From positions 217,171 through 281,170 of the forward strand of contig CAVPBK010000011.1 of NCBI GenBank assembly GCA_963701855.1: a stretch of DNA of 64,000 nt, written 5' to 3'. The translations under genes were made by a program, and so were the position numbers. Origin of the DNA: Nitrospirota bacterium. GTDB lineage: Bacteria; Nitrospirota; Nitrospiria; Nitrospirales; Nitrospiraceae. The notes beneath the pieces were generated by a model. The model was not told where the DNA came from. It made no database searches and saw nothing but the letters and a program-made list of their open reading frames with translations. This document shows, in pieces, positions 40,673 through 57,060 of this stretch (its first letter is position 1; every line of letters begins with the position of its first letter).

Positions 40673-40932
40673 GAGCGGCAAGCCTGCCTGCCGTCAGTCC
40701 TGCGAGCGGCATATCACGAGTGCAGTAGAAACTTTCATGAATGTTGTGGGCTGGAGGCCCTGTGAAACGGAGGATATTCAATGAAGAATAGAATGAGAAA
40801 GGAGGAGCTGCTGATACTGATCGCTCATTGACACGCTATCGCATCACCCGCCTACCCACCCATTCGTGTCATTGCTGTCGAGATATAGGGTCTGTTACCC
40901 TGCCCTCTCGATCACACGAATGGGAGGCATAT

Positions 40933-41178
40933 GTGACAGCCGTCGATAGTCTCATGATGGATGCAAAGCAAGCGATCATGGATGAACATCATCGCCGTTT
41001 TCAAACCCTCTACCAAGAGGGACGATGGGAGGAAGCGCTCCAACAAATTCACGTCACGCTGAGCTGTGCAATGGACCTTCTCAATGAGTCTCTTCGAGTC
41101 CTCGATGAAGCTCTTGATGTAGCCACAACCACACCTCTGACGGTTCCACTTCCCCTCCCGCAACCACATAATGAGTAA
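40933..41178 (+). CDS. Small helical hypothetical protein
   Basis: GGAGG RBS upstream of GTG at 40933; amphipathic helices. Confidence 0.55.
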   Translation: MTAVDSLMMDAKQAIMDEHHRRFQTLYQEGRWEEALQQIHVTLSCAMDLLNESLRVLDEALDVATTTPLTVPLPLPQPHNE

Positions 41179-41284
41179 GCGGAGCATTTCGTTCTCTCAC
41201 CGCACAAGAAATACTCCAATGACGACATCATCAGATGACGAGGCTATTACGATTAGAAACTAAGCAACCTCGTCCGCACTATGC

Positions 41285-41313
41285 TTGACAGTCTTACATA
41301 CAGTTGTTAGGTT
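41285..41313 (+). promoter_or_regulatory. Sigma70-type promoter, probably the original tRNA-Thr promoter
   Basis: TTGACA-N17-TAGGTT, 40 bp before the tRNA 5' fragment. Confidence 0.6.
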
Positions 41314-41353
41314 TTCTGACTATGCGCGAGGTTCTGTGCATCTATCGCTTTTA

Positions 41354-41393
41354 GCTGGCGTAGCTCAATGGCAGAGCAGCGGTTTTGTAAACC
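41354..41393 (+). repeat. attL: 40-bp copy of the 5' half of tRNA-Thr
   Basis: Identical to 55909-55948 (GCTGGCG...TTGTAAACC). Confidence 0.92.
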
Positions 41394-41409
41394 TGACACC
41401 GAACCAAGG

Positions 41410-41444
41410 CCCCTTGTAATCCCCAATGGTTACAAGGGGTTTTT
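41410..41444 (+). terminator. Intrinsic terminator just inside attL
   Basis: CCCCTTGTAA-N10-TTACAAGGGG-TTTTT. Confidence 0.75.
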
Positions 41445-41527
41445 CATTGTCTCGTTGGGTGACGTAGGGTGGCGGGAGGTGGTATACAGGCCGTCGCGGG
41501 CACAGTCACGGGCACAGGAATGACGGA

Positions 41528-41673
41528 TGGTGCGATGGATAAATGCGCGTGAACACCGAAAGGTGGATATCATTGTCGGTCTGATTTATATGGCGGCCTT
41601 GGCGATTGCCATTGCGGCGTTCACGTCGATCTTTCGCTCGCTGAGTCGAGTTCCGCCACAATCGCCGGCCTGA
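41528..41673 (+). CDS. ~48-aa single-TM protein
   Basis: MVRWINAREHRKVDIIVGLIYMAALAIAIAAFTSIFRSLSRVPPQSPA; coordinates approximate. Confidence 0.4.
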
Positions 41674-42066
41674 GGCCCCCATGCCGTTCTCGATTCGTCC
41701 CTTACCGTTGCTTCCCCGTTATGATGCTAACGCTGAACACGCTGACAAAGCTGGCAGAGGCGTTGAAGACTGCGCGAAAGTTAAAAAGTCGCCGCTCATC
41801 CGCTCCACCCTGATCTCGACCCCACCTCGAGGGATCAGGCCGGTGGATGGAGGGTCGTATACCCTCTCCCATTTTTCCTACCAATCATTTTGACCGTTCA
41901 CACGACCGGATTATTCCAGCAGGCGGCAATTCACAGAGCAAGCTGTGGGGGCTGTCCCTGTAGGTGCGGTCTTACAACAGCATACGTGCTTTCCCTACTC
42001 GCTCGGTTCCGGCGATACAGTAGACTGAAGCTATCTGAGAAACCGCAATGGAATGACTGTGGACAC

Positions 42067-42243
42067 ATGATAACGATGCGTCAAGCGGCTGCGCGACAAG
42101 TGAAATGGGAACAGCGAACATATCGCACACGATGTGAGCACTTGGTTTTGGAGTGGGAATGTAATGACCAGGGTTATTGGACCGGCAACTATGTCTGCAA
42201 TCTCTGCGGAGTATCTCCGGCCCATTGGGAGCTAGCCGCGTAG
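42067..42243 (+). CDS. 58-aa CxH...CxxC Zn-finger microprotein 1
   Basis: QAAA...KW...CEHL.LE....G..TGNYVCNLCG. Confidence 0.7.
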   Translation: MITMRQAAARQVKWEQRTYRTRCEHLVLEWECNDQGYWTGNYVCNLCGVSPAHWELAA

Positions 42244-42428
42244 CATCCCCCACCAATCCCTCCACCTCAACGGCGCATTTCCTTCCGCAGGCTATTCACC
42301 AAGACATACGCGCGACGACCTATCGCCTCACTCGAAACGTTATGAAGCGCCTACTGGGGGATTTCCTAGCACTCCAGCCACATGTTCTGCAGGATGCTTA
42401 TGAGAAGCCCGACTACGGAGGGACGACC

Positions 42429-42605
42429 ATGACAATCATTCAAGCGGCAGCAATACGAATCAAATGGAAACAGCGAACGGACCGTTCACCGTGCGAACAC
42501 ATGAACCTTGAATTGCAATGGGATGTTCTGGGCCATTCCGAGGGAGACTATATTTGCATTCTCTGCGGTGAATCTGTGGCCGAACGAAAAAAACTCGTTG
42601 CGTAA
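42429..42605 (+). CDS. 58-aa Zn-finger microprotein 2
   Basis: GGAGG RBS; QAAAIR.KW...CEHMNLE....G...GDYICILCGESVA. Confidence 0.75.
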   Translation: MTIIQAAAIRIKWKQRTDRSPCEHMNLELQWDVLGHSEGDYICILCGESVAERKKLVA

Positions 42606-42644
42606 CATGCTGGAATCTCACCCCGAAGATTGATGGGTCATCTC

Positions 42645-42962
42645 ATGAACATGGATCAAGCGGCTACGATACGCAGGAAATGGAATCAGGGAGGGATTCT
42701 TCAATCCTGCGATCACTTAAACTTGGAATTAGAATTGAATGACCTTGGAGATAAAACAGGTAACTATATTTGCATTCTCTGCGGTGAATCGGTTGCCCAC
42801 AGGTTGATGAACCAGGTAGAGGCAGGGACCGTACTCCCGAACCAAGTTGCTCCACCAATATGCTCGCACTACAAGCTTGGCTTGGAATGCACCAAGGATG
42901 GTCGATTGACGCGCACTTATCGGTGCCTGGAATGCGGTAGACCCTACGCCACGAACCTCTAG
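42645..42962 (+). CDS. Two-domain Zn-finger microprotein 3
   Basis: CDHLNLE...GNYICILCG, then CSHYKLGLE...TYRCLECG. Confidence 0.75.
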   Translation: MNMDQAATIRRKWNQGGILQSCDHLNLELELNDLGDKTGNYICILCGESVAHRLMNQVEAGTVLPNQVAPPICSHYKLGLECTKDGRLTRTYRCLECGRPYATNL

Positions 42963-43265
42963 AAGCACTCAGAAGCTAGGCCGGTACCGATCTTCCTTCG
43001 GCATCTGTCCCACAAACTCCACCGCCCCGCATCTGCGTGAACTCTTCTCCAACTCCGTTAGCCCCGCAACATCCCACAAGTCCCTGCAGCACGATTAGCG
43101 GCGCATGTCTCTGTTGCCTAGGGCCACTCTTCGCTCTTTTTTGCCGAGTTTTGTAAGCGATTTCTGACACGAAAACTAGGGCGGTTCCTAGTTCGTACAC
43201 AACTCTGTCCTGTCACCATGCAAGGGACGCCCCCCGCATCGCACTTCAAACCGGAGGTTATCGCT

Positions 43266-43547
43266 ATGCAAGCTCGATCCCCTCAACGCGAAAAGGAAGA
43301 ACGCCAGACAAAGACCCGCGTGGTCATAAAACAACCGCCACCAGAAGAAAAGCATGTCGAGTACGAGGAGGCATCGTTGGGCACTCAAGCGATAATGAGG
43401 AAGGATGACAACATCGCAACCTTAGCCTATGCGCTCTATGAACAACGGGGGCGAAAGGATGGGCGCGATTTAGATGATTGGCTCGAAGCAGAGCAACGGC
43501 TCGTGAGTTGGGAACAAGATAGGGGGGTATTAGGGCAGTCCCAGTAG
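43266..43547 (+). CDS. DUF2934-domain protein
   Basis: IATLAYALYEQRGRKDGRDLDDWLEAEQRL; GGAGG RBS. Confidence 0.85.
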   Translation: MQARSPQREKEERQTKTRVVIKQPPPEEKHVEYEEASLGTQAIMRKDDNIATLAYALYEQRGRKDGRDLDDWLEAEQRLVSWEQDRGVLGQSQ

Positions 43548-43658
43548 CCCAATTACACGGAGGCTGTAAATTTCCACGAGTTCAGAACCGCAATGGTATG
43601 ACCTGTGGCCGATCCTCCCACGGTTGTGACGCAGTCAGACCAGAGTGGAATCTGAGGG

Positions 43659-43692
43659 GGCTCGGTTTCGAAAGGAACCGAGCCTTTGTTTT
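43659..43692 (+). terminator. Intrinsic terminator
   Basis: GGCTCGGTTTC-GAAA-GGAACCGAGCC-TTTGTTTT. Confidence 0.75.
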
Positions 43693-43775
43693 AGCTAACG
43701 ATTCAGGAGAAGCAGATGCTGCTTTAACGGCTTATGGTCATTGTAAGGAAAAAGCTGCGTGGAGCTACTGCCACC

Positions 43776-44465
43776 TCACCGCCTTTCCCTGCTATGCTTC
43801 GCTCCTTTCCTCTGCCGTAGATGTCTACGCGTATTTCTAGCCTCTTGCTCCTTTCGTCGTTTGTTGCGCAAGGCCCGCATCGATGCAACTCGCTGGCAGG
43901 CTCGTGTGCAAAACTGCTGTTTCCGTCTTGCTTGAACGAAGAGCGTTGGGCAATGCTGACACTGCCTCAGCCGATCACCTGCTCCCTTCAACCCCAAAAA
44001 GAATGAGTATAGCAGTCCCTTCCCGTGTAGGGGATCCACATGCTCTCCAATAAGGCTGCCATAGAGAAGCTTTGGCCCAGGACGAAATCGAGGCAATTCG
44101 ATAGACGTATAGAGCTCGAACGCCTCGAACTCAATCCGTCCTGTGGTCGTGAGACGCCCCAAGTATTCTGCCACTTTGTTTTGTATTTCGGGTAACTGGG
44201 CCGCTGTGTCCGCATCAATTTGGTACTGGATGACATCACCATAGCCCTCCTCTTGAATGGCACGCACCTCCTCTCGCAGCTCGCGCAACTCCGTCGGTCT
44301 CATGGTCATCAGATTTGCCTGAGACAATTTGACGAACCAGTCCAAGAGTCTCCGGTGGTCTACCTGGCGGCCTTGCTTCTTGGTGTCGTCGAAATAGCCG
44401 ATTCGCACAAGCGCCTGCGAGCGAACTTTGGGGTCTAGGATAGCCGAAATATTTTCGATAGCCAT
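43776..44465 (-). CDS. CGNR-type zinc-finger protein (putative regulator)
   Basis: RLRQCQHC..LFV..RRKQQFCTRACQRVASMRALR with a basic tail. Confidence 0.7.
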   Translation of the reverse strand: MAIENISAILDPKVRSQALVRIGYFDDTKKQGRQVDHRRLLDWFVKLSQANLMTMRPTELRELREEVRAIQEEGYGDVIQYQIDADTAAQLPEIQNKVAEYLGRLTTTGRIEFEAFELYTSIELPRFRPGPKLLYGSLIGEHVDPLHGKGLLYSFFLGLKGAGDRLRQCQHCPTLFVQARRKQQFCTRACQRVASMRALRNKRRKEQEARNTRRHLRQRKGAKHSRERR

Positions 44466-44597
44466 TGTTGCGTTACTCCTTAGTCACAAGCAATTTAACG
44501 CCACTGCAGTTGCTTTACTTGATATTGTACCGCAACCAGTCTAGTCTCTCCCTGTCACCAGGTCAAGGGGCATCAATAAACGGAAAGGGCCATCACC

Positions 44598-44795
44598 ATG
44601 AAAGAGAACCCAGGCAACCTAATTCGAGTGTCGGAAGCTGCCGCGAAGCTTGGCCTTAAACCGAGCACGATTCGCAAGATGATCATGCAACAGCGAATCG
44701 AAGTGTTTCGGCCAACTCCACGTAGCGTCAGAATCTCTGAGCGAACGATTGAGATGATTCTGGCTAAAGGTTTTAGGCCGGCGGTTTCAGCTTGA
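44598..44795 (+). CDS. Excisionase/AlpA-like HTH protein
   Basis: LIRVSEAAAKLGLKPSTIRKMI...SVRI. Confidence 0.8.
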   Translation: MKENPGNLIRVSEAAAKLGLKPSTIRKMIMQQRIEVFRPTPRSVRISERTIEMILAKGFRPAVSA

Positions 44796-45130
44796 GCGGC
44801 AGGTACGAAAGGAACGCGCCCGAAGTGACTACGAGTAACCCTAGCCAGACAAGGCAAGTCTACGGGCACATCATTACGGTCGATCGGTTTCAGCCATTTG
44901 TGAGTCGCTGCGGTATTGATCAAGTCATTCGCCTGCAATTCGCGTACGACCCGGCTCTCATCTCGAAAATCAAAGCGCTCCTCTGCGTCTATCAAGTCGG
45001 CTCCGAGCACAAAACCGTCGGCGGCTGGCTACCGAAACATGGCTGTTGGTTTGTGGAACCGAGCGTGTGGGATGTGGTTCGTATGGAATTGCTCTATCTC
45101 GGATATCGTGTCATGGAGCGGAAATCGTGA
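44792..45130 (+). CDS. Small protein with a HARP-like motif
   Basis: LQFAYDPALISKIK...W.PKHGCWFV; translationally coupled to both neighbours. Confidence 0.55.
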   Translation: MSGRYERNAPEVTTSNPSQTRQVYGHIITVDRFQPFVSRCGIDQVIRLQFAYDPALISKIKALLCVYQVGSEHKTVGGWLPKHGCWFVEPSVWDVVRMELLYLGYRVMERKS

Positions 45131-47133
45131 GCGTCACATTACTCGCCGAGCACCTCGCCGACCTGAAGAATAGCGGACTCACGGATCCTTCCGTTGAGTT
45201 GCTGAAATGCACCGCAGTCCCGCCGCACCAGATCAAAATCAAGGGTGTTGAATCCGCATATAGCTTACCCTATTTCACCCTCGACGGCGTAGTGAATGGA
45301 TTCCACCGGATGAAGCTGTTTCCGCCGGTCAAGACCGATCACGGCACTATGCGCTACTGGCAACCGCCGAACACGTCACCACATTTGTATCTTCCTCCGC
45401 TCCTGAGCTGGCCGAATGTTGCGCGACATATCACCACGGAGCTCACGATCACGGAAGGGGAAAAGAAAGCCGCTTGTGCCTGTCAGCATGGCCTCATCAC
45501 GGCAGCGGTTGGTGGGGTGTGGAACTGGACCTCGACACTCGACAATGGTGAGAAGTTGACCCTGCCAATGTTGGATGAGTTCCAATGGACGAATCGATTC
45601 ATACTAATTTGTCCAGATAGTGACGCCTGGCAGGATGGTAACGGGGTACAGATCCTCGCCGGATTCTTCGCGCTTAGTAAAGAGCTGCAACAGCGCGGGG
45701 CGTCCGTGCAGTTTGTGCGGCTTCCCGATCTGCATGGGACAAAAACAGGCTTAGATGACTGGCTCGTCGTTCCTGGAAATGATGTTGAACATAGTTGGCC
45801 GAAACTGGAGCGGATCTCTCTCGACGATGCCCGCTTCGCCCCTCTCACGGCCTGGTGGCAATCATGGAAATCCAAACAGGCGACGCATGCGGCGATCAAG
45901 AGCCAAGACGCCGAGGAATTAGACCTCTCGGAAACCGCCGGCCTGTTCCTGGTGCACTCCAAGGCTCATAGCGTGCGGATGACCTTCGACCGGCTGAGTG
46001 AAGCGCGGGGCGGCGTCTCTGCGGAATTGAGCATTGTGCTTGGGACAACAGAAATCCGCAGTGGAGTCGATATCGGACTCAAGAGCGATAGCGGACAGAC
46101 GAAACTCGCGAGCGGGTTGACTCCCATGGCGTCAGCTGTTCCCTGGAAATGGCTATTACAGAAATCCTGCGCCTTGGTCCTGAAGCGGCATCGGGAGGGT
46201 GAACCCCTGCGGATATTGGCAGTGGACACGCTGGTCGAGCCGTTGACCTATCAGATCAACCCGATCGTTTTCCGTGGGAAGCCCACGGTGCTATTTGGTG
46301 ATGGTGGACTTGGGAAATCCTCGTTCGCCTTGCTCTGTGCCATGCTCGTGAGTATCGGCGAGCCCGTCGCTGGCATAGCCGCCTTGCCCGGCATTCCCCT
46401 CTATCTCGATTACGAAGATTCCTACGATGTACACGTGCGACGGATGCAGGCGATTGCGGCCTGCCACCCGAACCTCAGCAAGGCCACTGTCCACTATCAG
46501 GCCTGCACAGAACCGTTGACCAGCCTGACACATACCCTGCTACGTCGCATTCAAGCCGAAGGCATTACCTTTCTCGTGTTGGATAGTCTCGCCGCAGCCA
46601 CAGGCGGCGATGCCGGAGCGGAAGCCGCCACGAAGGTGTTTCGAGCCATCCGCACCTTAAGTCTCGGAACCATGATCGTCGCGCATATCCCCAAACCGAA
46701 CGGGGAAGGTATGGATCCCAGTATCTATGGCTCGGTCTTCCACAAAAATTTCGCGCGATCCACGTGGGAACTGCGGAAGGAACAGGAAGTCGGCAGTGAC
46801 ACGGCTATCCTCGGCCTCTTCAATCGCAAGTCGAACTTGTCCAGACTCCATCATCCGATCGGCCTCAAGGTGACCCAAAACGCAGAGAATAGCCGGATTC
46901 AGTATGAGGCCTTCGACCTGAGCCAAGCGGTGGAACTGGCCAGCGCCTTGCCCTTACCGAACAGAATTCGAAACCTCTTAGAAGATGGGGAACCCAGAAG
47001 CTCAAAGGATATTGCGGATGAACTCGGGGCAAAGTGGGCCTCGGTCAAGGCGGTGCTTTCAAAACATAAGGGCACCAAGTGGCAGATGGTGGGTGAGCAC
47101 AAGGACACAAAATGGACCGTTTTGCATGGTTAA
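45127..47133 (+). CDS. Primase (DUF3854/Toprim-like)-helicase (AAA_25-like) replication protein
   Basis: RYWQP, ITEGEKKA, CPDSD, GLDDWL, Walker A GDGGLGKS, LVLDSL, VAHIPK and a C-terminal HTH. Confidence 0.85.
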   Translation: MSVTLLAEHLADLKNSGLTDPSVELLKCTAVPPHQIKIKGVESAYSLPYFTLDGVVNGFHRMKLFPPVKTDHGTMRYWQPPNTSPHLYLPPLLSWPNVARHITTELTITEGEKKAACACQHGLITAAVGGVWNWTSTLDNGEKLTLPMLDEFQWTNRFILICPDSDAWQDGNGVQILAGFFALSKELQQRGASVQFVRLPDLHGTKTGLDDWLVVPGNDVEHSWPKLERISLDDARFAPLTAWWQSWKSKQATHAAIKSQDAEELDLSETAGLFLVHSKAHSVRMTFDRLSEARGGVSAELSIVLGTTEIRSGVDIGLKSDSGQTKLASGLTPMASAVPWKWLLQKSCALVLKRHREGEPLRILAVDTLVEPLTYQINPIVFRGKPTVLFGDGGLGKSSFALLCAMLVSIGEPVAGIAALPGIPLYLDYEDSYDVHVRRMQAIAACHPNLSKATVHYQACTEPLTSLTHTLLRRIQAEGITFLVLDSLAAATGGDAGAEAATKVFRAIRTLSLGTMIVAHIPKPNGEGMDPSIYGSVFHKNFARSTWELRKEQEVGSDTAILGLFNRKSNLSRLHHPIGLKVTQNAENSRIQYEAFDLSQAVELASALPLPNRIRNLLEDGEPRSSKDIADELGAKWASVKAVLSKHKGTKWQMVGEHKDTKWTVLHG

Positions 47134-47290
47134 CGCCCATGGTTAACGCCCTTCGTGAGTTAACGCTGGTTAATGCGGTTAACGCATGGCGTAACTCTAT
47201 GATTCCACACGATGAAGGCGTTATCCGTGATCGTTAACCGCCGATGGTTAATTAACGCCCCCCTCCTTATAGGAGGGGCATGTTAACCAT
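47128..47290. repeat. GTTAAC iteron cluster, putative replication origin
   Basis: Six GTTAAC plus GTTAAT/ATTAAC variants within ~160 bp, right after the helicase. Confidence 0.7.
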
Positions 47291-47602
47291 CCAATGGAAA
47301 TAAGTAAGAGAGAAGAGGGGTATGCGCCTCTACATGCCCTTAAGTCACGGAACGTCCTCGCGCATGTGACGGGGAGTGGAATGATCGGCTCGCCGGAAAC
47401 GGTGCGCCGATCCTGGGTCCCGGAGTTGAGCGCTCAATTCCGGGGAAACCCGGTCGGTCGACGCCAACGCTGATGGAGTTAAGAACTCGTGAACGGTAAA
47501 CAGGATGACCTTCCCATAGTTCCTGGCTCTCGACGGGGCAAACCAGGGCGTCCTCCAAATGGCGATACAGGCATCTTCGGGAAAGAGGAAGTTGGGCACA
47601 GT

Positions 47603-47878
47603 ATGGGCACAGCGACCATGAAACCACGCACTCAGAGCGGGACGAGTGATGGAGCACCGGTTCAGATAACCGTGGCTCCGGTGAGTCCGAGACTCTTGGA
47701 TCTGCATACGGCAGCCGCCTATCTCGGAGTGTCGGAATGGACGATCAGAGATCTAGAAACCGCCGGCACCGTGTCGCGCGTTCGCATTCCCCTTCCTAAC
47801 GCGGGCGAACTGCGAAAGCTGCTGTTTGATCGTGCCGACTTGGACCGCCTGATTGACGGATGGAAAGACCTACGATGA
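47603..47878 (+). CDS. Excisionase-like HTH protein
   Basis: PRLLDLHTAAAYLGVSEWTIRDL...LLFDRADLDRLID; start uncertain. Confidence 0.8.
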   Translation: MGTATMKPRTQSGTSDGAPVQITVAPVSPRLLDLHTAAAYLGVSEWTIRDLETAGTVSRVRIPLPNAGELRKLLFDRADLDRLIDGWKDLR

Positions 47879-47908
47879 GAAGAACACTTCACCCATAAAG
47901 GAGTACCC

Positions 47909-48622
47909 ATGCTCAACTTGGAGAAAAATCCGTTTGCAAAGTCCACATCCACACCCCCGTCGACGGGATCCTCGATACCTTCGGCGGATAAAGCCGTCAA
48001 GCGCTGGCAATTGGAATACGGGCGAACCCGAAAGCGCGTGGAGGACTTCTCCTCCCAGCTCGACGCGGCGCGCCAGGCCCTTACCGAAGCCGATCAACTC
48101 CTAGGCGATCGCCTGTTTGATGGGGTGGATGTGAGCGAGGCCGAGGCCGCCTTGACGCAGGCTGGAGAAAAAGTCAGCAGACTCGAAATCGCGCTGAAGC
48201 GTGCCGTGCAGCGGGACGAAGAGGCCCAAGTTTCGCTGAAACAGGCCCAACAACTCATTGAGATGGAAGTCGCGCGCGAAAAACTGACGAAGCAGCTCGC
48301 AGCGGGAAAAAAGGTCGATGAATGTTTGGACGGCTTGAGGCTGGCTGTCACAGAGTTCAGCGCCTGTCGGCAAGCAGTCTTGGACTTAGGCGATCCAGGC
48401 ATCAACGCGCAACTCAATGTGGCGGATCTCTCGTTCAAGACCTATCTCTTTCGGGCCTGTCCGACGATGGCCGGCTGCGCGACTGGCTACGCCGCGTTTC
48501 AGACGGATGCGCGGTGGTCGGCCCCATGGTCGGAGACGCTTCCGCAACCCGATCAAGCGGACCACATACACGTCACTGTGCCAGCGGCAAAACCGATCCC
48601 AGGCTGGCAGATCGGAGAATGA
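47909..48622 (+). CDS. Coiled-coil hypothetical protein
   Basis: AAGGAG RBS; heptad-rich 237-aa ORF. Confidence 0.7.
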   Translation: MLNLEKNPFAKSTSTPPSTGSSIPSADKAVKRWQLEYGRTRKRVEDFSSQLDAARQALTEADQLLGDRLFDGVDVSEAEAALTQAGEKVSRLEIALKRAVQRDEEAQVSLKQAQQLIEMEVAREKLTKQLAAGKKVDECLDGLRLAVTEFSACRQAVLDLGDPGINAQLNVADLSFKTYLFRACPTMAGCATGYAAFQTDARWSAPWSETLPQPDQADHIHVTVPAAKPIPGWQIGE

Positions 48623-48628
48623 AATTGC

Positions 48629-49126
48629 ATGGAAGGCACCTTGACGGACAAGCAACGCAAATTTGTGGAGCTCTACACCAGTGGGAAGATGGATAAAGTT
48701 CACGCGGCACGGGCTGCAGGCTATCAAGGGTCCGGGGCGAACAAAGCCGGGAGTCGACTGATGAAAAATCCAATTGTGCGTCAGGCGATTGAAGCGGTCC
48801 AAGCTGAAGCTAGAACTGTAGCGGTCTATGATCTGGCAACAGCGATGCGCGAGGCTGATGACGTGTGCGCCTTCGCCAAGCTCCACAAAAACGCGATGGC
48901 CTACTGCAAGGCTGTGGAGCTACGCGCCAAACTCTCAGGCCTTCTCATCGATAAGGTTGAGGTCGTGAGCGTGGACCTCTTGGCCGCCATGGAAGCTGCG
49001 GAGCGGCGAGTGATCAATGTCACACCCAGAGCGCAAAGCTTGATGGCGCCTGCACGCTGGATCCCCCGCGTGCCAGGTGACGAGAAACCAGAAGCCGGGC
49101 CAACGGATGGGCAAGTCGGAAGTTGA
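48629..49126 (+). CDS. terS: Terminase small subunit
   Basis: LTDKQRKFVELY...AARAAGY.......GSRLMKNP.V...I and KAVELRAKLSG. Confidence 0.85.
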   Translation: MEGTLTDKQRKFVELYTSGKMDKVHAARAAGYQGSGANKAGSRLMKNPIVRQAIEAVQAEARTVAVYDLATAMREADDVCAFAKLHKNAMAYCKAVELRAKLSGLLIDKVEVVSVDLLAAMEAAERRVINVTPRAQSLMAPARWIPRVPGDEKPEAGPTDGQVGS

Positions 49127-49308
49127 GGCAAGGAATTGCTAGACCGAAACGTTGACCAGGGGGAGTACTACCGGGCGGTGGGGCAGGAATTCTGGCCGAG
49201 CGCTCAGATCGACGGTACCTCCGCGGTCCCTGAGCACACCTCTATATATTATTTTAATTGAGATGTTTTTTGAGAAGCCCATAAGGGCTCCTACTGAAAG
49301 GACACGCC

Positions 49309-50036
49309 ATGAACGAATCCACACTCACGCCAAGCCCCGCGTCAGCTCAACCTGACACTTGAACACGGCGCCAGCCATCATCGCTCCCGGTAGTCCACCG
49401 GCTCCACTCACCGCACCGCCAGGCACCGCGTTAGAGATTGCGCAGATGCTGGACGCGAAAACCATTGATACCGCAGGCGCCGGCAAGCTCGCGAGGGCCG
49501 GGAACATCTCCACGCTGCAGGTTGCGCAAGCCTTGAGTACGCTCCGAGAGGCAGCGGAACCGCAAGTGGACGTGAGAAGTGACGCGGAGAAGGAAGCAGA
49601 TCGCGACTTCGGTCCAGCGGCGAAACCCGAAGAATACCTCCTCCGAATGTATGACCCTGGACAAGAGCCGCCTGTGATTCCAAAAGAGGTCTCGGCTTTC
49701 GAGGCGAATGCACGCGGCTGGATGGCTGATGCGGGACTACCTCTGAATCTTGGGAATAGCCTGGTGAACACCCTATCGAAGGCGATCCAGCACACGCACG
49801 GAATGCCCCCCGAACAACGCGAATTGTACAAAGACGCCGAGAATACGAAGTGTGAAAAACTTTTTGGGCCGGACTGGCACGAAACGAAGCTCAAGCCCGT
49901 GGCAGCGATGATACACGAACTGGATCAGCGCCGGCCTGGTTTAAAGGACCTGGTGCGCGCGCATGGCGACCATGCGGTTTTTTTGGCGCAATTAATACAG
50001 GCCGCCACCATCTATTACGCACGAAAGAAAGGCTAA
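49309..50036 (+). CDS. Hypothetical protein, possibly scaffold-like; likely frameshift near the 5' end
   Basis: RBS and ATG at 49309 are out of frame with the long ORF 49359-50036. Confidence 0.55.
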
Positions 50037-50113
50037 GGATGCTCACCCGAGCCGTTCACCATCTGTGCAATCTGGCTCGATCCAGGAAAAGATGTAACCC
50101 AATGGCCCCCGTT

Positions 50114-50329
50114 TCAGCGAGAGGCATAGGCTATCGCTTGAAGGAGACTACTCATATCTCGCGGCCACTCGTGCTTACAGTCTTGATTCACGCAGGCCCA
50201 CAGTTCCAATCGTGGGATCGTCATTCTGTGGCCGGCAATCGTCCAGCTCGCAATCGGCTCCGCATGGCTCAGACATTTGGGACAGGTCATCGCTTCCTCC
50301 TCCCAGTGAAATTTTTCGTAGGGTACCAC
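50114..50329 (-). CDS. Small Zn-ribbon protein
   Basis: MTCPKC...WACVNQDCKHEW; true start probably the internal Met. Confidence 0.55.
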   Translation of the reverse strand: MVPYEKFHWEEEAMTCPKCLSHAEPIASWTIAGHRMTIPRLELWACVNQDCKHEWPRDMSSLLQAIAYASR

Positions 50330-50905
50330 TGGAGGAAAAGGCTGGGACTAGCAAGATCCCTAGTTCGTAGATGATGGACTGATCCTAGATCAGGGCAGGA
50401 CGTTCGCGGAGAAATACATTACCGCAAGTGAACAATGAGCGTTTGAGGTAGAACGATACGGGCTGAACCACACGGCAAGGGCGTGAGATGAGGCTACCTC
50501 TGGTGCGAGTTTTGATTATCGAAACATAATCCCAAGCACGATGCCGGACGCGACGATGAAACCCAACACCAGCAGGGCTTCGAAGAGCGAACGCAGTGCA
50601 GTCATAGTCGGCACTCCTTCACATGAAGGATAGCGCCGATATGACGTTTCGTAAAGCCGGGACCGACTCCAGCGAGGTAGCGGGGCAGGCTCAACAGCTC
50701 ATGAAGTGACGCGAGACGGTGCGAATCGACTGGTGACCACAGGTTTCCCTGTTTCACACGCGCGGGCAACGCGTCGCGGTCACGATGAGAAGACGCATGG
50801 GGGACTTCCCTGGCGAGCAAGACAGACGAAACGGGGCGAGCATGTCTCACATGACAGCATTTGATAGCACATGTACACTACCCCCTTCTCATCAAGGGGG
50901 TGCGC

Positions 50906-51547
50906 ATGGACTGGAAGTTTTGGGTTCCTGTAATTATTAGCCTTCTTGCGCATATCAGTCGATTCGCCAAACGAAATTGATGAAACAGGACATGTTACTA
51001 GAAGACTCCACCTCAAACATAAAAAGATACTGGCCCGTTTGGACACTATTGTTCATAACGATCGGTGTATGGGTTCCATACACAATAACTTGGTTGAAGG
51101 TGTTTCCGAACCAGCCTGTCAACAAAACTCAGAGCACGTAGGATTTGGTCTAGATAGATGCCATGCTGAAATGGATGCGACATTTTCCTGAAATATCGTG
51201 AGGACTACAAGATAGTGTTGGTATGTGGGGTGGCAAACCCAGCCAAGGATAAGTATGAAGATCGGAGCATTTCTATTAGCCAGCCATTCACAATTGTGGA
51301 GGGTAGGATAGAGATAGACCTGCCTTATACGGCAGAAATGATCAAAGCTAGTGAGGAGTATGTGGCCGATCACGCGAAGTCCTCTCATCCCTCACGTGGA
51401 GGAGCGCCGAACCTTCCGTTATTGGGAAGCTTTTGGAATGAATGGGTCCTGATTCCGAAGTCTGTCAATGTGATGGACATCAAGAAACTGTCAGATGTTG
51501 ACGCATATAAGGGTAAAATTGTGAAAAGAGACTTACCTGGAGCATGA
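50906..51547 (+). pseudogene. AT-rich membrane-anchored protein gene with several frameshifts
   Basis: MDWKFWVPVIISLL, RYWPVWTLLFITIGVWVPY and KYREDYKIVLVCGV...DKYED lie in successive frames. Confidence 0.45.
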
Positions 51548-51624
51548 ACTAGGTTGTTTGACATTTTGGCAACGAGGTGTCGTGACAAAGTTATTGCCCG
51601 CGTTTCTTTGATCTGGCCCTTGAG

Positions 51625-51849
51625 TTACTTCGGCGGCAGCAACGGTCCAGCCCATTCGCCCTCAATGGTCGTGATCGGTCCCCTGCAACGATCAGCGGAC
51701 TGATTGTCGACTGTGAGTGTGCCATCCTTTAACTCCGCGTCCACGACATAGGCCTTCGCGTCTCGTGACTTGCGATACCCATAGAGCCCTGGCGCTGTTG
51801 GCTTTTGAGTGGTCCCAACCGGAATCTTAGGCTCTTCAGCGTTGATCAT
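51625..51849 (-). CDS. Small hypothetical protein
   Basis: GGGGAG RBS; KPTAPGLY.Y...GEWAGPL.PP. Confidence 0.55.
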   Translation of the reverse strand: MINAEEPKIPVGTTQKPTAPGLYGYRKSRDAKAYVVDAELKDGTLTVDNQSADRCRGPITTIEGEWAGPLLPPK

Positions 51850-52204
51850 TTCTCCCCTATGAGTAGAAGCTCTGCGAGGTCGACTTGTAGTCCAGACAGC
51901 CGAGGGACTTGCTCATGCGGTTACCCCTTCCCCTTCGGGCAGCAACCCCTTGTTCCTCAGTTCCCGTCCATCCCCTAAGCCTTGCGCAGATACGTCCACA
52001 TGGCATTTTGGCCAGAGCATTTTCTCCCGCCTGATTTGCCACCGCCTGGGCAGGGAGGAAATTTCATATTGTCTGGCACCGATCGCTCGACGCCGCAGCA
52101 CAGAGACATGTACACGCCAGGGACATGGTTCATATCGCCGGTTCGCATGAGCGCCCTCCTATCTGAGACGATCGACGCGGTTGTGACGTGCTCTCCCTCA
52201 CAGG

Positions 52205-52498
52205 TTATTCAGGATGCGCGCTGAGTGTCGCGATCACCTCTTTGAGATGTGAGCTCGCATGAAAGGTCACCACTCGGCGTGCCGTGATTATCATAGCCTC
52301 ACTGGTTGAGGGATTCCGTCCCGGGCGCGCGGCCTTGCTTCGCACCGTAAACTTGCCAAAATTGGGGATAACGATCGGTTCTCCCTTCTGAAGGGTGGTC
52401 TTGAAGAACTCAAGGATCCAATCCAGCAGTATCACCGCGTCTCGTTCCGAAATCCCTGCCCGCTGATGTATTCGCTCCGCCATCTCGACCTTACGCAT
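52205..52498 (-). CDS. IHF/HU-family DNA-bending protein
   Basis: IPNFGKFTVRSK.ARPGRNP.T....I.ARRVVTF.AS. Confidence 0.92.
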   Translation of the reverse strand: MRKVEMAERIHQRAGISERDAVILLDWILEFFKTTLQKGEPIVIPNFGKFTVRSKAARPGRNPSTSEAMIITARRVVTFHASSHLKEVIATLSAHPE

Positions 52499-52504
52499 TC
52501 GGTC

Positions 52505-52690
52505 TTATTTTCCCTTCGGCTTGTCCCGGTATTTTTTCATCAGATCATGCAGCGCTTCTTCGATTAGTTCGTTGAATCGTCGACGTTGGCGTGCGGCCAT
52601 CACCCGGACTTCCGTCACAAGATCTTGACTAATGCGTGCACCGATCTGCTGCTTTGGTGGAGGCTGTGGGGAAGGGGGCTTAGGAGACAT
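52505..52690 (-). CDS. Ribbon-helix-helix protein (putative repressor)
   Basis: QIGARISQDLVTEVRVMAARQRRRFNELIEEALHDLMKKY. Confidence 0.75.
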   Translation of the reverse strand: MSPKPPSPQPPPKQQIGARISQDLVTEVRVMAARQRRRFNELIEEALHDLMKKYRDKPKGK

Positions 52691-52697
52691 TTCGGGC

Positions 52698-52776
52698 ACG
52701 TTACTGAAAGGCTCATAGCGTGTCAAGTAACATCGCTTGACATCATTATAGGTAACATGGTAACAATGTTACCTAT
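52698..52776. promoter_or_regulatory. Divergent promoter/operator region
   Basis: Minus-strand TTGACA-N17-TAACGT 7 nt before ATG 52690; plus-strand TTGACA at 52737; palindrome ATAGGTAACAT-N7-ATGTTACCTAT. Confidence 0.7.
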
Positions 52777-52794
52777 CAGAAAGGAGGTGAGATA

Positions 52795-52935
52795 ATGAGA
52801 ATGACGAGACTGAACATCCAACTACCAGTGCCCCTCAAGGCCAAGCTCGACGCCGAGCGCAAGCGGGGCACGAGCGCGGCGGGATTGATTCGGCATTTGT
52901 TGGAGCAGCATTTCAAGGCTAAAAAGGCGGCGTAA
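52795..52935 (+). CDS. 46-aa CopG-like RHH protein (not in the ORF track)
   Basis: AAGGAGGT RBS; MRMTRLNIQLPVPLKAKLDAERKRGTSAAGLIRHLLEQHFKAKKAA. Confidence 0.8.
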   Translation: MRMTRLNIQLPVPLKAKLDAERKRGTSAAGLIRHLLEQHFKAKKAA

Positions 52936-52956
52936 CGCATCACCAAGGAGGCGGCG

Positions 52957-53187
52957 ATGGAAGACGACCGAGACAAAAGACCGATGCTGTACCTCGCGCT
53001 CTCGGAAGAGGAGTTTGCGCACTATGAGCGGCGCGCCGAGGCAGCGGGTCGAACGCTCGAAGATCAGCTTCGCTATGAGCTGGGGGTCAGTTTGGGACTA
53101 ACGGTGCCGACCCCCGGCGATCTCGAAGCCACGCAACGCGGCCAGTTCTTCCGCCGCCAGCGCGCGCACCAACCGCTCTGGGGCTGA
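52957..53187 (+). CDS. Small RHH-like protein
   Basis: AAGGAGG RBS; LYLALSEEEF...ERRAEAAGRTLEDQLRY. Confidence 0.65.
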   Translation: MEDDRDKRPMLYLALSEEEFAHYERRAEAAGRTLEDQLRYELGVSLGLTVPTPGDLEATQRGQFFRRQRAHQPLWG

Positions 53188-53210
53188 CAAGCAGAAAGGC
53201 CGGTGACTCC

Positions 53211-54479
53211 ATGTACGAGACCTTCCACGATCTCATCCTCGGCTATCTCGACACGCTGAAAGGGCGGCACTCCTATATCAATACCTCGTATGTCGTGGCC
53301 CCCTGGATTCTCACGCTGGATCGCACCCCGACCCGTCAAGACATCCTCGCGCGTCATCGCGCCAAAGGCATTGGGCATTGTCAGGCTGGGGCGACGGCGG
53401 CAAACTCTGAACTCAAAGTCATGCGTGCCGCATTCCGGTGGGGCACCTATCAGGAGGTCTGGACAGGCGGCGACCCGACCTTCGGCATCAAGCCATGGAA
53501 GACACCGGGACGAGAGGAGATTTTGAAGCATCAACAGATTGCGACCCTGCTCACGCATTTTCGTCAGGCCACGACGGACACCGCGATCCGTGATCGGGCC
53601 TTGTTCGGGTTGTGTCTCTTCACCGGCTCGCGTCCCATCGAAGGGCGCACGGCCTTGCTCACGGATATTGATCCCTACGGCACCATGGGCTGTTGGAAGA
53701 AAGCGAAAACGAAAAATGGGAAGCGTCATCAAATTCCGATTCCCTCGCAGCTCATGGGCTGGCTGGAGGACTGGAAATCGATTCGACCCACTTATAGACC
53801 GAACCCCTACCTGTTCCCTGGCCAGGGATTCAATAAGCCGTTAGGCGCAGCCATGATGGTCTGGCGCTGGGATGCGATCAGGACCGAACTGAAGTTTGAC
53901 GGCCTGTGGAATTATGATCTCCGGCGCACGCTTGTGTGCTATCTCTCTGATGAATTGGGCTATGACAGCTCGATGATTCGCGCGATTCTTAATCACAAAG
54001 AGAAAGGGGCGCTCGGACATTATCTCCATAAATCCTTCGACTCCCTCACCAAGCCGATTCAGCACTATGCGGACTGGCTCTGGGGGTTGAGTGGCGCGCC
54101 CTCGCTCCCCCCACCGGCGGCCCTGTCGTCTGACGCACGCAGGCTGGGGACCCTGTCGAAGCGAGAACGCGAGGTCCTGTCCCATTTTGCGCAGGGTGAC
54201 TCGTCGTGCCGACGCATCGCGGCGCAGTTGAAGATCTCATGTAGTGCCGTCGAATCGTACCGATCGCGTCTCTCAAACAAACTCCAACTGAAGACCTCCA
54301 TCGAATTGATTCACTTTGCCCGTGCGCATGAGGGCGAGGCCACCGTGTCTATACCTAACCAGGCCCCGCCTCCTCCCGTGGTGGCGCCGGTGGTCATGGA
54401 TCGCCCGGTGATGCATGGACCTGTGCAGACGGTTCACCTGTCACGCTGGGGCCTGGAGCGCGAGGAATGGCCGGGATGA
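53211..54479 (+). CDS. Tyrosine recombinase with a C-terminal LuxR-type HTH
   Basis: TGSR, KTKNG, YDLRRT, LNH and HY, followed by LSKREREVL...IAAQLKIS...VESYRSRLSNKL. Confidence 0.82.
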   Translation: MYETFHDLILGYLDTLKGRHSYINTSYVVAPWILTLDRTPTRQDILARHRAKGIGHCQAGATAANSELKVMRAAFRWGTYQEVWTGGDPTFGIKPWKTPGREEILKHQQIATLLTHFRQATTDTAIRDRALFGLCLFTGSRPIEGRTALLTDIDPYGTMGCWKKAKTKNGKRHQIPIPSQLMGWLEDWKSIRPTYRPNPYLFPGQGFNKPLGAAMMVWRWDAIRTELKFDGLWNYDLRRTLVCYLSDELGYDSSMIRAILNHKEKGALGHYLHKSFDSLTKPIQHYADWLWGLSGAPSLPPPAALSSDARRLGTLSKREREVLSHFAQGDSSCRRIAAQLKISCSAVESYRSRLSNKLQLKTSIELIHFARAHEGEATVSIPNQAPPPPVVAPVVMDRPVMHGPVQTVHLSRWGLEREEWPG

Positions 54480-54535
54480 TGGACGCTCCTGGACAGAATT
54501 AGAGGAAACTGAGCAATGGGACAGGGTGAGGGACG

Positions 54536-54685
54536 CTATACCGGCTTCACGAGACTCAGCAGCTCAATGGCGCTGTATTCGATGATGTCTCGATCCTCTG
54601 CCCCCAGCATGCCATGCTCCACTAGGGCCTTGATCGATTCGCAGGCGTGGATGAAATCCATGGCCTCTTTCCCATAGGAAATCAT
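54536..54685 (-). CDS. 49-aa hypothetical protein
   Basis: AGGAG RBS; MISYGKEAMDFIHACESIKALVEHGMLGAEDRDIIEYSAIELLSLVKPV. Confidence 0.5.
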   Translation of the reverse strand: MISYGKEAMDFIHACESIKALVEHGMLGAEDRDIIEYSAIELLSLVKPV

Positions 54686-54808
54686 AGGGTCTCCTGTAAA
54701 AGTAACAAGGAGTGAGCAGAAGGCATACGTATTCTAACAACCAATTTCCAAACAGAGGTATCAGGCGTCCTTAGTAAGGGGTACTCATATGTTGGAAGGG
54801 AGGATCAC

Positions 54809-55896
54809 ATGGGCATGTTCTACAAACGAGGCGAGGTCTTTTGGATCAAATACTATAGCAGCGGCAGGCCGATTCGGGAAAGCACCGGCACGACAAAGCA
54901 AAAGGAGGCGGAACGGTTCTTGAAAGACCGTGAGGGCCGCGTGGCGATGGGCGCGCCGATCCTGCCGAAGGTGCAGCGGACCACGGTCGGCGACATTGCT
55001 AACCGACCTCAAGGCGCACTATGAAACAACGGGCCAGCGGACCTTGCGCGAAGCCGAAACACGGTTCATCCCGTTGCGGCAATTCTTCACGGGCCGACGG
55101 GCGAACGCGATCAGCGGCGATGTTCTGACGGCCTACATCCAACATCGGCAAGTCGGCGGCCTGTCTAATGGCACCATCAACCGTGAACTCAGCGTCCTTG
55201 GCACGGCCTACAAACTGGGCATGGAGCACGGGAAGGTGGTCCGCCGGCCCGTCATTCATCTACTGAAAGAGGCGCGAGCCACGGCAAGGCTTCTTTGAGG
55301 ACGCCAGTTCCAGGCAGTCCGAAAACATCTGCCGGAGGATCTCCGGGTGCGCCGTCACCATCATGTGGTTGTATGGATGGCGGCGCAGCGAAGTGATGTC
55401 GTTGCAGTTGGGCCAGATCGATCTTGAGGCGGGCACGTTCCGCTTAGAACCCGGCTCGACGAAAAACGGAGACGGACGAGTCGTCTATATGACGCCAGAA
55501 TTGAAGACGCTCATCTCCGCGCAGATCGGGCGAGTGAAAGTCCTGTCACGTCGGTTGGGACGTGTGCTGCCCCAGCTGTTCGTCCATCTGCGTGGCTGCT
55601 ATACTGGGCAGCCCGTGTACGATTTTAGAAAAGCTTGGTCACACGCCTGTGAGCGAGTGGGATTGGTCGGCATGTTGCGACACGATTTCAGGCGCTCGGC
55701 GGTCAGAAATATGGAACGCGCTGGCGTACCTCGATCCGTAGCGATGAAGATTTCAGGTCACAAAACCGAGAGCATCTATCGACGCTATGCGATCGTGAGC
55801 GAATCCGACATTCAGGACGCAACGCGTCGACTCCTCGGGCACAATTTGGGCACACTCCCCTCCCACTCGGTTGACATCACGCACGTAAGTGGGTGA
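54809..55896 (+). pseudogene. int: Island tyrosine integrase with ~4 single-base indels
   Basis: YKRGEVFWIKY..RESTG, TINREL, GWRRSE, TKNG, HDFRR, ISGHKT and RY across successive frames; adjacent to attR. Confidence 0.9.
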
Positions 55897-55900
55897 TATT
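55871..55900 (+). promoter_or_regulatory. Element-borne promoter candidate for tRNA-Thr
   Basis: TTGACA-N17-TGATAT (or N18-GATATT), ending 8-9 nt before the tRNA and overlapping the int stop. Confidence 0.6.
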
Positions 55901-55908
55901 CCTCGCAG

Positions 55909-55983
55909 GCTGGCGTAGCTCAATGGCAGAGCAGCGGTTTTGTAAACCGCAGGTTGGAGGTTCAATTCCTCTCGCCAGCTCCA
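55909..55983 (+). tRNA. tRNA-Thr (TGT)
   Basis: Acceptor GCTGGCG/CGCCAGC, anticodon arm GCGGT-TTTGTAA-ACCGC, GGTTCAATTCC T-arm and encoded CCA. Confidence 0.97.
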
Positions 55984-56029
55984 CAATTTCCGCTGACGAT
56001 TCAACCTGTTCGCGGCTTGCAGAACCGCT

Positions 56030-56133
56030 GCTCTCCCCTGTCAATTCGGCGAGTGTAACCGTAAGTGTAACCATCTTTGCTTTTTCCCGCTCAAAGTAGG
56101 CAGTCATCGACTTTGCAGCCTGTTCAAGGTCTG
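56030..56133 (-). pseudogene. Possible C-terminal remnant of a second integrase
   Basis: TDLEQAAKSMTAYF...VTLTVT with an AGTGTAACC direct-repeat pair; cut by the IS3 end. Confidence 0.5.
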
Positions 56134-57060
56134 TGGGCTGCTGCTGGTTTAGGGGACACCCACTTACGCGAATTCGGCCTTCATTTCGAACTCCATGGGA
56201 CTGAGATATCCCAGCGTAGAGTGCCTCCGCCGAGGATTGTAGAAACACTCGATGTACTCGAACACATCGGCCTTGGCCTGCGCTCGGGTGCGGTACATCT
56301 TCGCGGCCGTGCGTTCGGTCTTCAGCGAGGAGAAGCAGCTTTCCATCACCGCATTGTCCCAGACGTTGCCCGCCCGGCTCATACTACAGGTGACGCCGTG
56401 GTCGGCCAGGAGACGCTGAAACGGCTCACTCGTATACTGGCTCCCTCGATCGGAGTGATGCAGCACGGGGTGGGGCGTGCCCCGCCGCCAGATCGCCATC
56501 ACCAATGCATCGGTGACCAGCTGCGCGGTCATCGTCGCACTCATAGACCACCCGACCACCCGTCGCGAGAAGAGATCAATGACCGCGGCGACGTAGAGCC
56601 AGCCCTCGGCGGTCCAGAGATACGTGAAGTCGGCGACCCATTTGCGGTTTGCCGACGCGGCGTCGAACGTCCGGTTGAGCACATTCGGCGCCACGGCGTT
56701 CGTCGAGCGGACCCCAGTGTCCGATGGTATCCGTCGCCGTCTGGGGCGGGCGCGCAAGGCGACGTGCCGCATCAGCCGCTCAATGCGATGGAGGCCACAG
56801 GCGATGCCCTCCACAAGCATGTCGTGCCAGACCCGCTGCGCGCCGTAGGTGCGATCGCTGGTGAGGAAGCTGGCCCGTACTCGGATCAGCAACGGCTCGT
56901 CGGCCCGCGCCCGGACACTTGGCGGCCGGGTCCGCCAGGCATAGAAGCCTGCACGCGAGACACCGAGCGCCTCACACAACCATCCCGCCGGCCAAATTCC
57001 CAGGTGCTTCGCGATGAAGGCGAACGTCACAGCGCCTCCTGTGCGAAGTAGGCCGCGGTG
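56134..57060 (-). mobile_element. Truncated IS3-family element (orfB 56164-57030; only the orfA tail remains)
   Basis: DDE motifs WVADFTY, HHSDRGSQY, DNAVMES and YNPRRRHS; orfA end AYFAQEAL*; TG terminus at 56134. Confidence 0.9.

Follow-up and report, generated by a model that had tools for sequence, protein, structure and literature searches.

A sole-copy tRNA-Thr(TGT) gene in a Nitrospirota bacterium whose front half, and likely its promoter, would come from a satellite-like island

How does a tRNA gene stay in use once a mobile element has come to lie between the gene and its own promoter? The question is raised by the end of contig C11 (CAVPBK010000011.1, positions 217,171 to 281,170) of a Nitrospirota bacterium (GCA_963701855.1; 4.30 Mb in 15 contigs, 97% complete), a stretch of 64,000 nucleotides that we call the window, where an island separates a fragment of tRNA-Thr(TGT) from the whole gene. 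Lambda-type integrases cross over within a 7-bp loop, using arm sites and DNA bending by integration host factor (IHF). The first-pass annotation of the window held that tRNA-targeting integrases normally restore the 3′ part of their target; this stands as a description of the majority (the normal type below), while the reverse type, which duplicates the 5′ part, is a described minority class and thus not unprecedented (PMC4383910). The explanation that we judge, as a whole, to be very probable is that the island, a satellite-like element carrying a tyrosine integrase gene, is integrated between a displaced front half of tRNA-Thr(TGT) and the intact gene, and that it likely recombined at the anticodon loop in reverse orientation. 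From the sequence, the element likely drives the tRNA from a promoter within the last integrase codons. The element boundaries, the empty sites in relatives, the arm-like repeats at both ends, the conservation patterns and the controls are established. The features on which the argument turns are these (positions are those of the window):

41285..41313, + strand: candidate native host tRNA-Thr promoter, TTGACA(41285)-N17-TAGGTT(41308), now facing the 5′ fragment only
41354..41393, + strand: attL core, displaced host tRNA-Thr(TGT) nt 1-40, one copy of a 40-bp repeat
41394-55908: island of ~14.6 kb, between the tRNA-Thr(TGT) nt 1-40 fragment and the whole gene
41410..41444, + strand: hairpin and T run, element-borne candidate intrinsic terminator, 17 bp past the repeat
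41498..41516 (41498/41510), + strand: left candidate GGGCACA arm-type pair, 111 and 123 bp from the anticodon centre
54809..55896, + strand: cognate tyrosine integrase (PF00589), oriented toward attR
55837..55854 (55837/55848), + strand: right candidate GGGCACA arm-type pair, in codons of the integrase C-terminus, 105 and 94 bp ahead of the anticodon centre
55871..55900, + strand: predicted replacement promoter, TTGACA(55871)-N18-GATATT(55895), which overlaps both the stop codon of the integrase and an IHF-like site (55886-55898)
55909..55983, + strand: intact tRNA-Thr(TGT), sole copy (tRNA call and Rfam)

The boundaries are drawn by a direct repeat of 40 bp (41354-41393 and 55909-55948), whose two copies are 100% identical and lie 14,555 bp apart. 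The repeat corresponds to nt 1-40 of the tRNA gene (BLAST E value of 2.6e-16 against the genome), and together with the tRNA coordinates it bears out the initial reading that the duplicated 40 bp are tRNA positions 1-40 and that the element lies upstream of the intact gene. This gene is the only Thr(TGT) gene among the 45 tRNA genes of the genome, and it gave the single match in an Rfam scan of 40800-56400. The 5′ fragment is upstream of the gene, co-oriented with it and 14.6 kb away, where Islander-type criteria allow 2-200 kb, and PF00589 tyrosine integrase matches fall inside the island at 55363-55896 and 53211-54479. We infer a crossover point within the anticodon loop, at 41384-41390; the tRNA fragments in relatives stop at about nt 37-43.

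Island-free relatives reveal the state of the locus before integration. We searched 85 genomes of the genus, the island genome (G000) included, for the tRNA 5′ end and classified the DNA upstream of it by motif. The search matched 65 genomes, of which five were unclassifiable (four with a 5′ fragment only, one cut short) and 60 were classified, two "other" upstream cases being settled by eye. The native promoter alone precedes the whole gene in 32/60 (one with an insertion), foreign DNA alone in 27/60, and both in 1/60. The 27 genomes with foreign upstream DNA divide among several element families: the island's own, family A, in 13, C in 7, B in 3, D in 2, A and B together in one, and another in one. 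In one of the two family D genomes, the 5.8 kb upstream yielded no integrase match, which makes the nature of this family less certain. Tandem arrays of different element families are also present. The empty site built in silico from the window agrees with the sequence of G015 at 363/375 nt, ungapped. The DNA at 41.3 kb is thus the native upstream region of the tRNA in relatives, as the first-pass annotation had predicted, and its proposed ground for refutation, a different native upstream region, was not what the relatives showed. In G007 (L097:3030-3176), a repeat-like insertion separates the native promoter from the whole tRNA. Five tRNA genes of the island genome carry 5′ fragments; besides Thr(TGT), they are those for Arg(TCT), Arg(CCT), Ser(TGA) and Arg(ACG), with fragments at C3:155770, C6:9328, C9:482153 and C10:10267, respectively, and at three of these four an integrase lies directly upstream of the whole gene.

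At the left end, the displaced fragment had been described as keeping a TTGACA-N17-TAGGTT promoter and as followed at once by an element-borne terminator, and both descriptions hold. Both promoter boxes are present and the motif is kept in 39 unique native ends of the genus; a consensus scanner is silent on it, and its -10 matches the consensus at 3/6 positions. The hairpin folds at -21.8 kcal/mol (z -4.7, with 0/200 shuffles as good), the consensus scanner again being silent, and in some relatives the equivalent stretch carries an IHF-like site. The host promoter would then give a non-functional transcript of ~120 nt ending at the hairpin, and in the excised circle the same hairpin would halt int transcription as well. 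Hairpin and arms recur at 7/8 left ends of other reverse-type members of the integrase clade described below. Among seven normal-type far ends bearing arms, the hairpin is intact at two and degenerate at five, so that the idea of a hairpin specific to reverse elements is not supported. It is an old feature of attP, and stopping the host promoter need not be what it evolved for.

At the right end, the TTGACA candidate that had been noted within the last integrase codons was found by the scanner with a 10/12 consensus match; one match against 0.3 expected is not significant alone, and it is the conservation in relatives that carries signatures of selection. Among 17 unique family A ends, TTGACA is kept in 16. 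The Val codon of the -35 is GTT in 16/17 (15% in genome usage) and the Asp codon is GAC in 17/17 (47% in genome usage), with the neighbouring codons variable, and the only variant with an N21 spacer stands before a 5′ fragment rather than a whole tRNA. An A two bases before the tRNA is invariant in all 17 ends, which points to A55907 as the predicted start and to a leader of 2 nt; the leaders of E. coli tRNAs span 2-52 nt in the part of PMC7049720 available to us. In 6/17 ends there is no adjacent integrase, and what these ends have in common is the last 41-118 bp, promoter included; five of the six stand before a whole tRNA. Two complete elements have both family A ends without an integrase, one of 2.8 kb (L035:795-3605, G050) and one of 2.3 kb (L037, G055), and are either decayed remnants or units moved in trans. 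Family B retains TTGAC and TA[G/A]AA in 9/9 ends. Within the integrase clade, 12/19 reverse-type and 0/10 normal-type rows have TTGAC at 70-73 bp before the anticodon centre (p 0.001), or 9/14 and 0/7 with near-copies collapsed by eye (p 0.007); outside the clade it is found in 0/9 reverse-type and 0/24 normal-type rows. In its pattern of conservation, TTGACA-N18-GATATT behaves like a selected promoter, from which we infer activity.

The arm-like repeats suggest how such an element could integrate in either polarity. GGGCACA pairs occur four times in the genome, three of them in the island. Measured from the anticodon centre, the pairs lie at -105/-94 in family A and at -106/-94 in a normal-type relative, and at -103/-92 in both family B and its normal-type sister. 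On the far side, arms at 109-112/121-124 are seen in 7/9 normal-type far ends, where the island has 111/123. An IHF-like 13-mer, matched to what we take to be the IHF consensus, lies 56-59 bp before the anticodon centre in both polarities. As arm-to-crossover distances are equal in the two polarities, polarity can likely switch with the integrase geometry unchanged. In the proposed circular attP, the order would be the int 3′ end, an arm pair, the -35, the IHF-like site with the -10, tRNA nt 1-33, the loop, the hairpin and the other arm pair. A crossover in the loop would join the element's promoter and 5′ half to the host 3′ half, giving a pre-tRNA with the 2-nt leader. Polarity would be set by the ~90 bp that separate arm from core, which may hold either an antisense 3′ half or a promoter and 5′ half, and promoter ends would persist while elements decay. 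The host promoter is regained when the element excises precisely or the repeats recombine with each other, so that the arrangement is not an addiction system and its cost is confined to imprecise loss.

Polarity was then placed on integrase trees. Among the relatives listed, the closest integrases belong to Nitrospira/Nitrospiraceae metagenome-assembled genomes (MAGs); viral contigs held no close relative, the best reaching 28-37% identity. From a scan of GTDB, the best 80 of 449 integrase relatives were combined with 7 viral loci into a set of 87, whose Thr(TGT) rows partly repeat the genus set. The tRNA just past the integrase is co-oriented in 28 loci, convergent in 34 and absent in 24, and one locus is without an integrase match. 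Leaving aside these 24, that one locus and one short row, the resulting 61-row tree gives 10 polarity changes, at least 4 of them forced. Family A falls in a clade of 29 rows (Shimodaira-Hasegawa-like approximate likelihood ratio, SH-aLRT, 100) with 19 reverse and 10 normal rows, spread over several phyla and over Thr, Met, Asp, Arg, Pro, Val and Ser tRNA targets; the reverse targets include Met, Pro, Val, Arg(TCT) and Ser. With fewer loci sampled, family A had seemed strictly sister to the normal-type integrase of G058; wider sampling did not bear this out, and both now lie in this poorly resolved clade. In the tree of genus loci, from which 8 short rows and one unrelated integrase (G055) were removed, family A groups with a normal-type integrase at the same tRNA, as does family B, and a single origin of the reverse type is rejected (approximately unbiased test, p-AU 1.7e-138); polarity labels predate the trees, and the p-AU test came after the first of them. 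As to whether related integrases also duplicate tRNA 5′ halves, of nine other genomes checked, six have a 5′ fragment upstream on the same contig (9-35 kb), two have one on another contig and one has none. Polarity thus appears, from these sequences, to have changed repeatedly in the clade while arm and IHF-like spacing stayed fixed.

Integrase open reading frames (ORFs) of the main normal-type family, at eight loci (L003, L007, L009, L071, L074, L080, L082 and L089, minus strand), run stop-free and antisense through the whole tRNA. As a result, the integrase C-terminus would differ between the integrated and excised states; such ORFs recall Mx8, mentioned in PMC4383910.

Several points weigh against the replacement of the host promoter as drawn here. 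At the promoter position, a clear sigma-70 match is absent from families C and D and from G020, and neither 7/19 reverse-type rows of the clade nor 9/9 outside it have a clear TTGAC/sigma-70 match, so that the notion of a sigma-70 promoter in every reverse element is not supported. At the four other reverse ends in the island genome (Arg(TCT), Arg(CCT), Ser(TGA) and Arg(ACG)), the consensus match reaches 7-8 of 12 or is missing altogether. Where ends are without a consensus promoter, int read-through or weak promoters must serve. Because the IHF-like site is shared with normal-type elements, conservation of the -10 is partly explained without a promoter, and the arm and IHF assignments, made by pattern and position, are putative. 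The 61-row tree is a quick one, with the clade interior largely unresolved; the genus genomes are mostly fragmented MAGs and are related, so their counts are not independent. Among the 24 sequencing runs listed, all of them contigs, the best word share was 0.21 and that of the sole RNA run 0.09. In one alternative, which we consider unlikely, the reverse element is real, transcription of the tRNA comes mainly through read-through from int or from island promoters further upstream, and the motif is kept as an IHF site and as coding sequence. In its favour, the integrase gene faces the tRNA and no + strand terminator was called in the interval, the IHF-like 13-mer overlaps the -10 at the distance seen in normal-type elements, and many reverse-type ends do without a consensus promoter. 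However, the -35 lies outside the IHF-like site and is fixed at synonymous positions, and it survives in the 6 integrase-less ends, while being absent from 10/10 normal-type rows of the clade.

The geometry of the target offers another explanation, as the anticodon arm of Thr(TGT) is nearly palindromic, with a perfect 7-bp inverted repeat centred on the anticodon, which might let a normal integrase insert either way, and this tRNA is used in both polarities. This we find very improbable, and reject as the cause of reverse polarity, because 3/5 tRNA genes with 5′ fragments in the genome have non-palindromic loops, the palindromic Thr(CGT) has seven 3′ fragments and zero 5′ fragments, and the clade uses the varied reverse targets listed above. 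Scarcely credible is the last alternative, in which the whole tRNA with its promoter is cargo of a phage-type element and the left 40 bp are an unrelated duplication or an assembly artefact. Both ends are seen again in many independent genomes, whether on single contigs or in tandem arrays, the arm pairs flank the core at fixed distances, the host flank aligns without gaps to a relative over 3081 bp, and the tRNA is the only Thr(TGT) gene; all of this speaks against cargo or artefact, to which the position of the stretch at a contig end and four integrase indels that could be sequence errors would lend themselves.

As assembled, the cognate integrase is frameshifted by four 1-nt indels, near 54996, 55277, 55302 and 55349, in a gene with 87% DNA identity to an intact relative, and the same four are seen against 4 relatives. 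As the 3081-bp host flank has no gaps, the alignment favours real decay over sequence error, which could still account for them. With its integrase broken, this copy is probably heading toward a promoter-only remnant like those of its relatives.

The 3′ side of the tRNA has a history of its own:

55984..56150, - strand: end of a second, normal (3′-type) element, ~75% identical to the ends of intact 3′-type integrase loci
56164-57030: IS3-like element cutting the second element (rve/HTH_21 matches)

The end of the second element contains a GTGTAAC arm pair (56053/56065), an IHF-like site and an integrase C-terminal remnant. As this side matches a normal-type element end, the intact tRNA gene is probably made wholly of mobile DNA, its 5′ half derived from the island and its 3′ half from the downstream element. 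The trailer contributed by the latter (56012-56037) is complementary to tRNA nt 17-42 (55925-55950) over 26 nt, at 85%. When tRNA and trailer are folded together, the trailer pairing (-61.2 kcal/mol, z -5.7) is preferred over the cloverleaf; a weaker form exists in most of 20 related ends, the strongest being in the island genome. This complementarity may have been left by an ancestral reverse att site, or it could affect pre-tRNA processing. Nearer the contig end, 56164-63098 holds, besides a short SRAP ORF and a patatin fragment, IS3-like, split IS30-like and IS21-like elements, family names that we presume from their domains.

The remaining content of the island is satellite-like:

44598..44795, + strand: HTH_17/excisionase-like gene (PF12728, phrog_66)
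45046..47133, + strand: primase-helicase-like replication gene (DUF3854 and AAA_25; Pfam/PHROG matches)
47489..47878, + strand: second excisionase-like helix-turn-helix (HTH) gene (phrog_66)
47909..48622, + strand: unnamed phage-associated protein, weak lead to Psu (PF07455; Atlas score 0.90)
48629..49126, + strand: terminase small subunit (PF03592, phrog_51)
52205..52498, - strand: island-carried HU/IHF-family DNA-binding protein (PF00216)
53211..54479, + strand: second tyrosine recombinase, fused to a C-terminal LuxR/GerE HTH (PF00589 and PF00196)

An integrase gene, a xis-like regulator, a primase-helicase and a packaging-interference gene thus occur together within ~15 kb, the combination by which a satellite is recognised. 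No capsid, tail or lysis family was found among 22 island ORF pieces searched with Pfam or 14 searched with PHROGs, several of these ORFs having no family at all. The primase-helicase-like gene has ~70% DNA identity to the matching island of G011. The Psu-like lead belongs to a protein with no Pfam or PHROG match; Atlas searches of two island proteins returned unnamed clusters and weak leads, and the ORF at 49359-50036 has only a 0.83 lead to PF05396. The cognate integrase directly follows the recombinase-LuxR fusion. A third arm-like GGGCACA pair (47594-47611) lies immediately 5′ of an internal ATG in the second excisionase-like gene, and may serve control of xis by Int or be left over from an att arm. 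At 41890-42962, three tandem ORFs each end in a small Cys/His-rich stretch (C..H..LE....G.Y.C..CG); Pfam gave no match for any of them, and PHROGs none for the two scanned.

Phage-inducible chromosomal islands (PICIs) and P4-like satellites, with their familiar general features, resemble the island in its ~15 kb, integrase, excisionase-like HTH genes, primase-helicase, small terminase and Psu-like lead. They differ in that its replication and packaging genes run toward the integrase, which is broken, and in that it carries the recombinase-LuxR fusion and the HU/IHF gene.

Among described reverse elements, 159/3919 islands in Islander (4%) have a 5′ fragment of the tRNA gene, and the text of that study does not discuss promoters for the class (PMC4383910). 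The available part of another paper describes 5′-distal recombination as considerably less frequent, and cites Zhao and Williams 2002 for a reverse-orientation element (PMC6563490). The island shares with the Islander class a tyrosine integrase, an anticodon-centred site and a 5′ fragment upstream of the restored gene, and it is close to the Islander size peak of 13.6 kb. In contrast to the 4% there, 27/60 genus genomes here are affected at one tRNA, and the reverse type forms the majority (19/29) in the clade. Element-supplied promoters have been reported elsewhere: the available portion of PMC8409611 describes a new promoter for dusA elements (IMEVchUSA3), demonstrated by lacZ fusion and weaker than the native one, and one supplied by the integrative and conjugative element (ICE) SXT at prfC. 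As far as that portion goes, the likeness lies in insertion at the 5′ end of a host gene and the supply of a new promoter and 5′ part. The targets there are protein genes, whereas here the target is a sole-copy tRNA, with a promoter predicted in the last integrase codons over an IHF-like site and, unlike the dusA and prfC elements as compared, with close relatives of the integrase using the opposite polarity. The portions of PMC1635311, PMC12884075 and PMC9897764 at hand hold nothing further on element-supplied promoters or reverse islands. In the literature searched, which did not cover three key Williams-lab papers, there was no account of the clade, of its promoter within int, of repeated changes of polarity or of how frequent the arrangement is in Nitrospira; this applies to main texts, and some of the islands may be entered in Islander or TIGER tables.

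Taken singly, the island exemplifies a minority class already described; what matters is the comparative, clade-level picture. A broader proposal, plausible but falling somewhat short of probable, is that a cross-phylum clade (Nitrospirota, Rokubacteria/Methylomirabilota, Verrucomicrobiota, Actinomycetota and others) carries a swappable attP module for tRNA replacement, with fixed geometry, a promoter in the last int codons over an IHF site and many flips of polarity. In about half of the species of this Nitrospira genus, transcription of an essential tRNA with a single gene copy would have passed to mobile elements, their promoter ends becoming domesticated while the rest decays, and binding of Int or IHF at attR would directly set tRNA supply. 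Natural pairs of related integrases, with the same attB, opposite orientations and identical arm spacing, make the evolution of polarity and target choice testable. Island finders that scan only downstream of tRNAs would miss many elements in under-studied phyla. ACA makes up ~16% of Thr codons in the long ORFs of the genome, and the findings suggest that expression of an essential tRNA from mobile DNA is frequent in a major nitrifier lineage.

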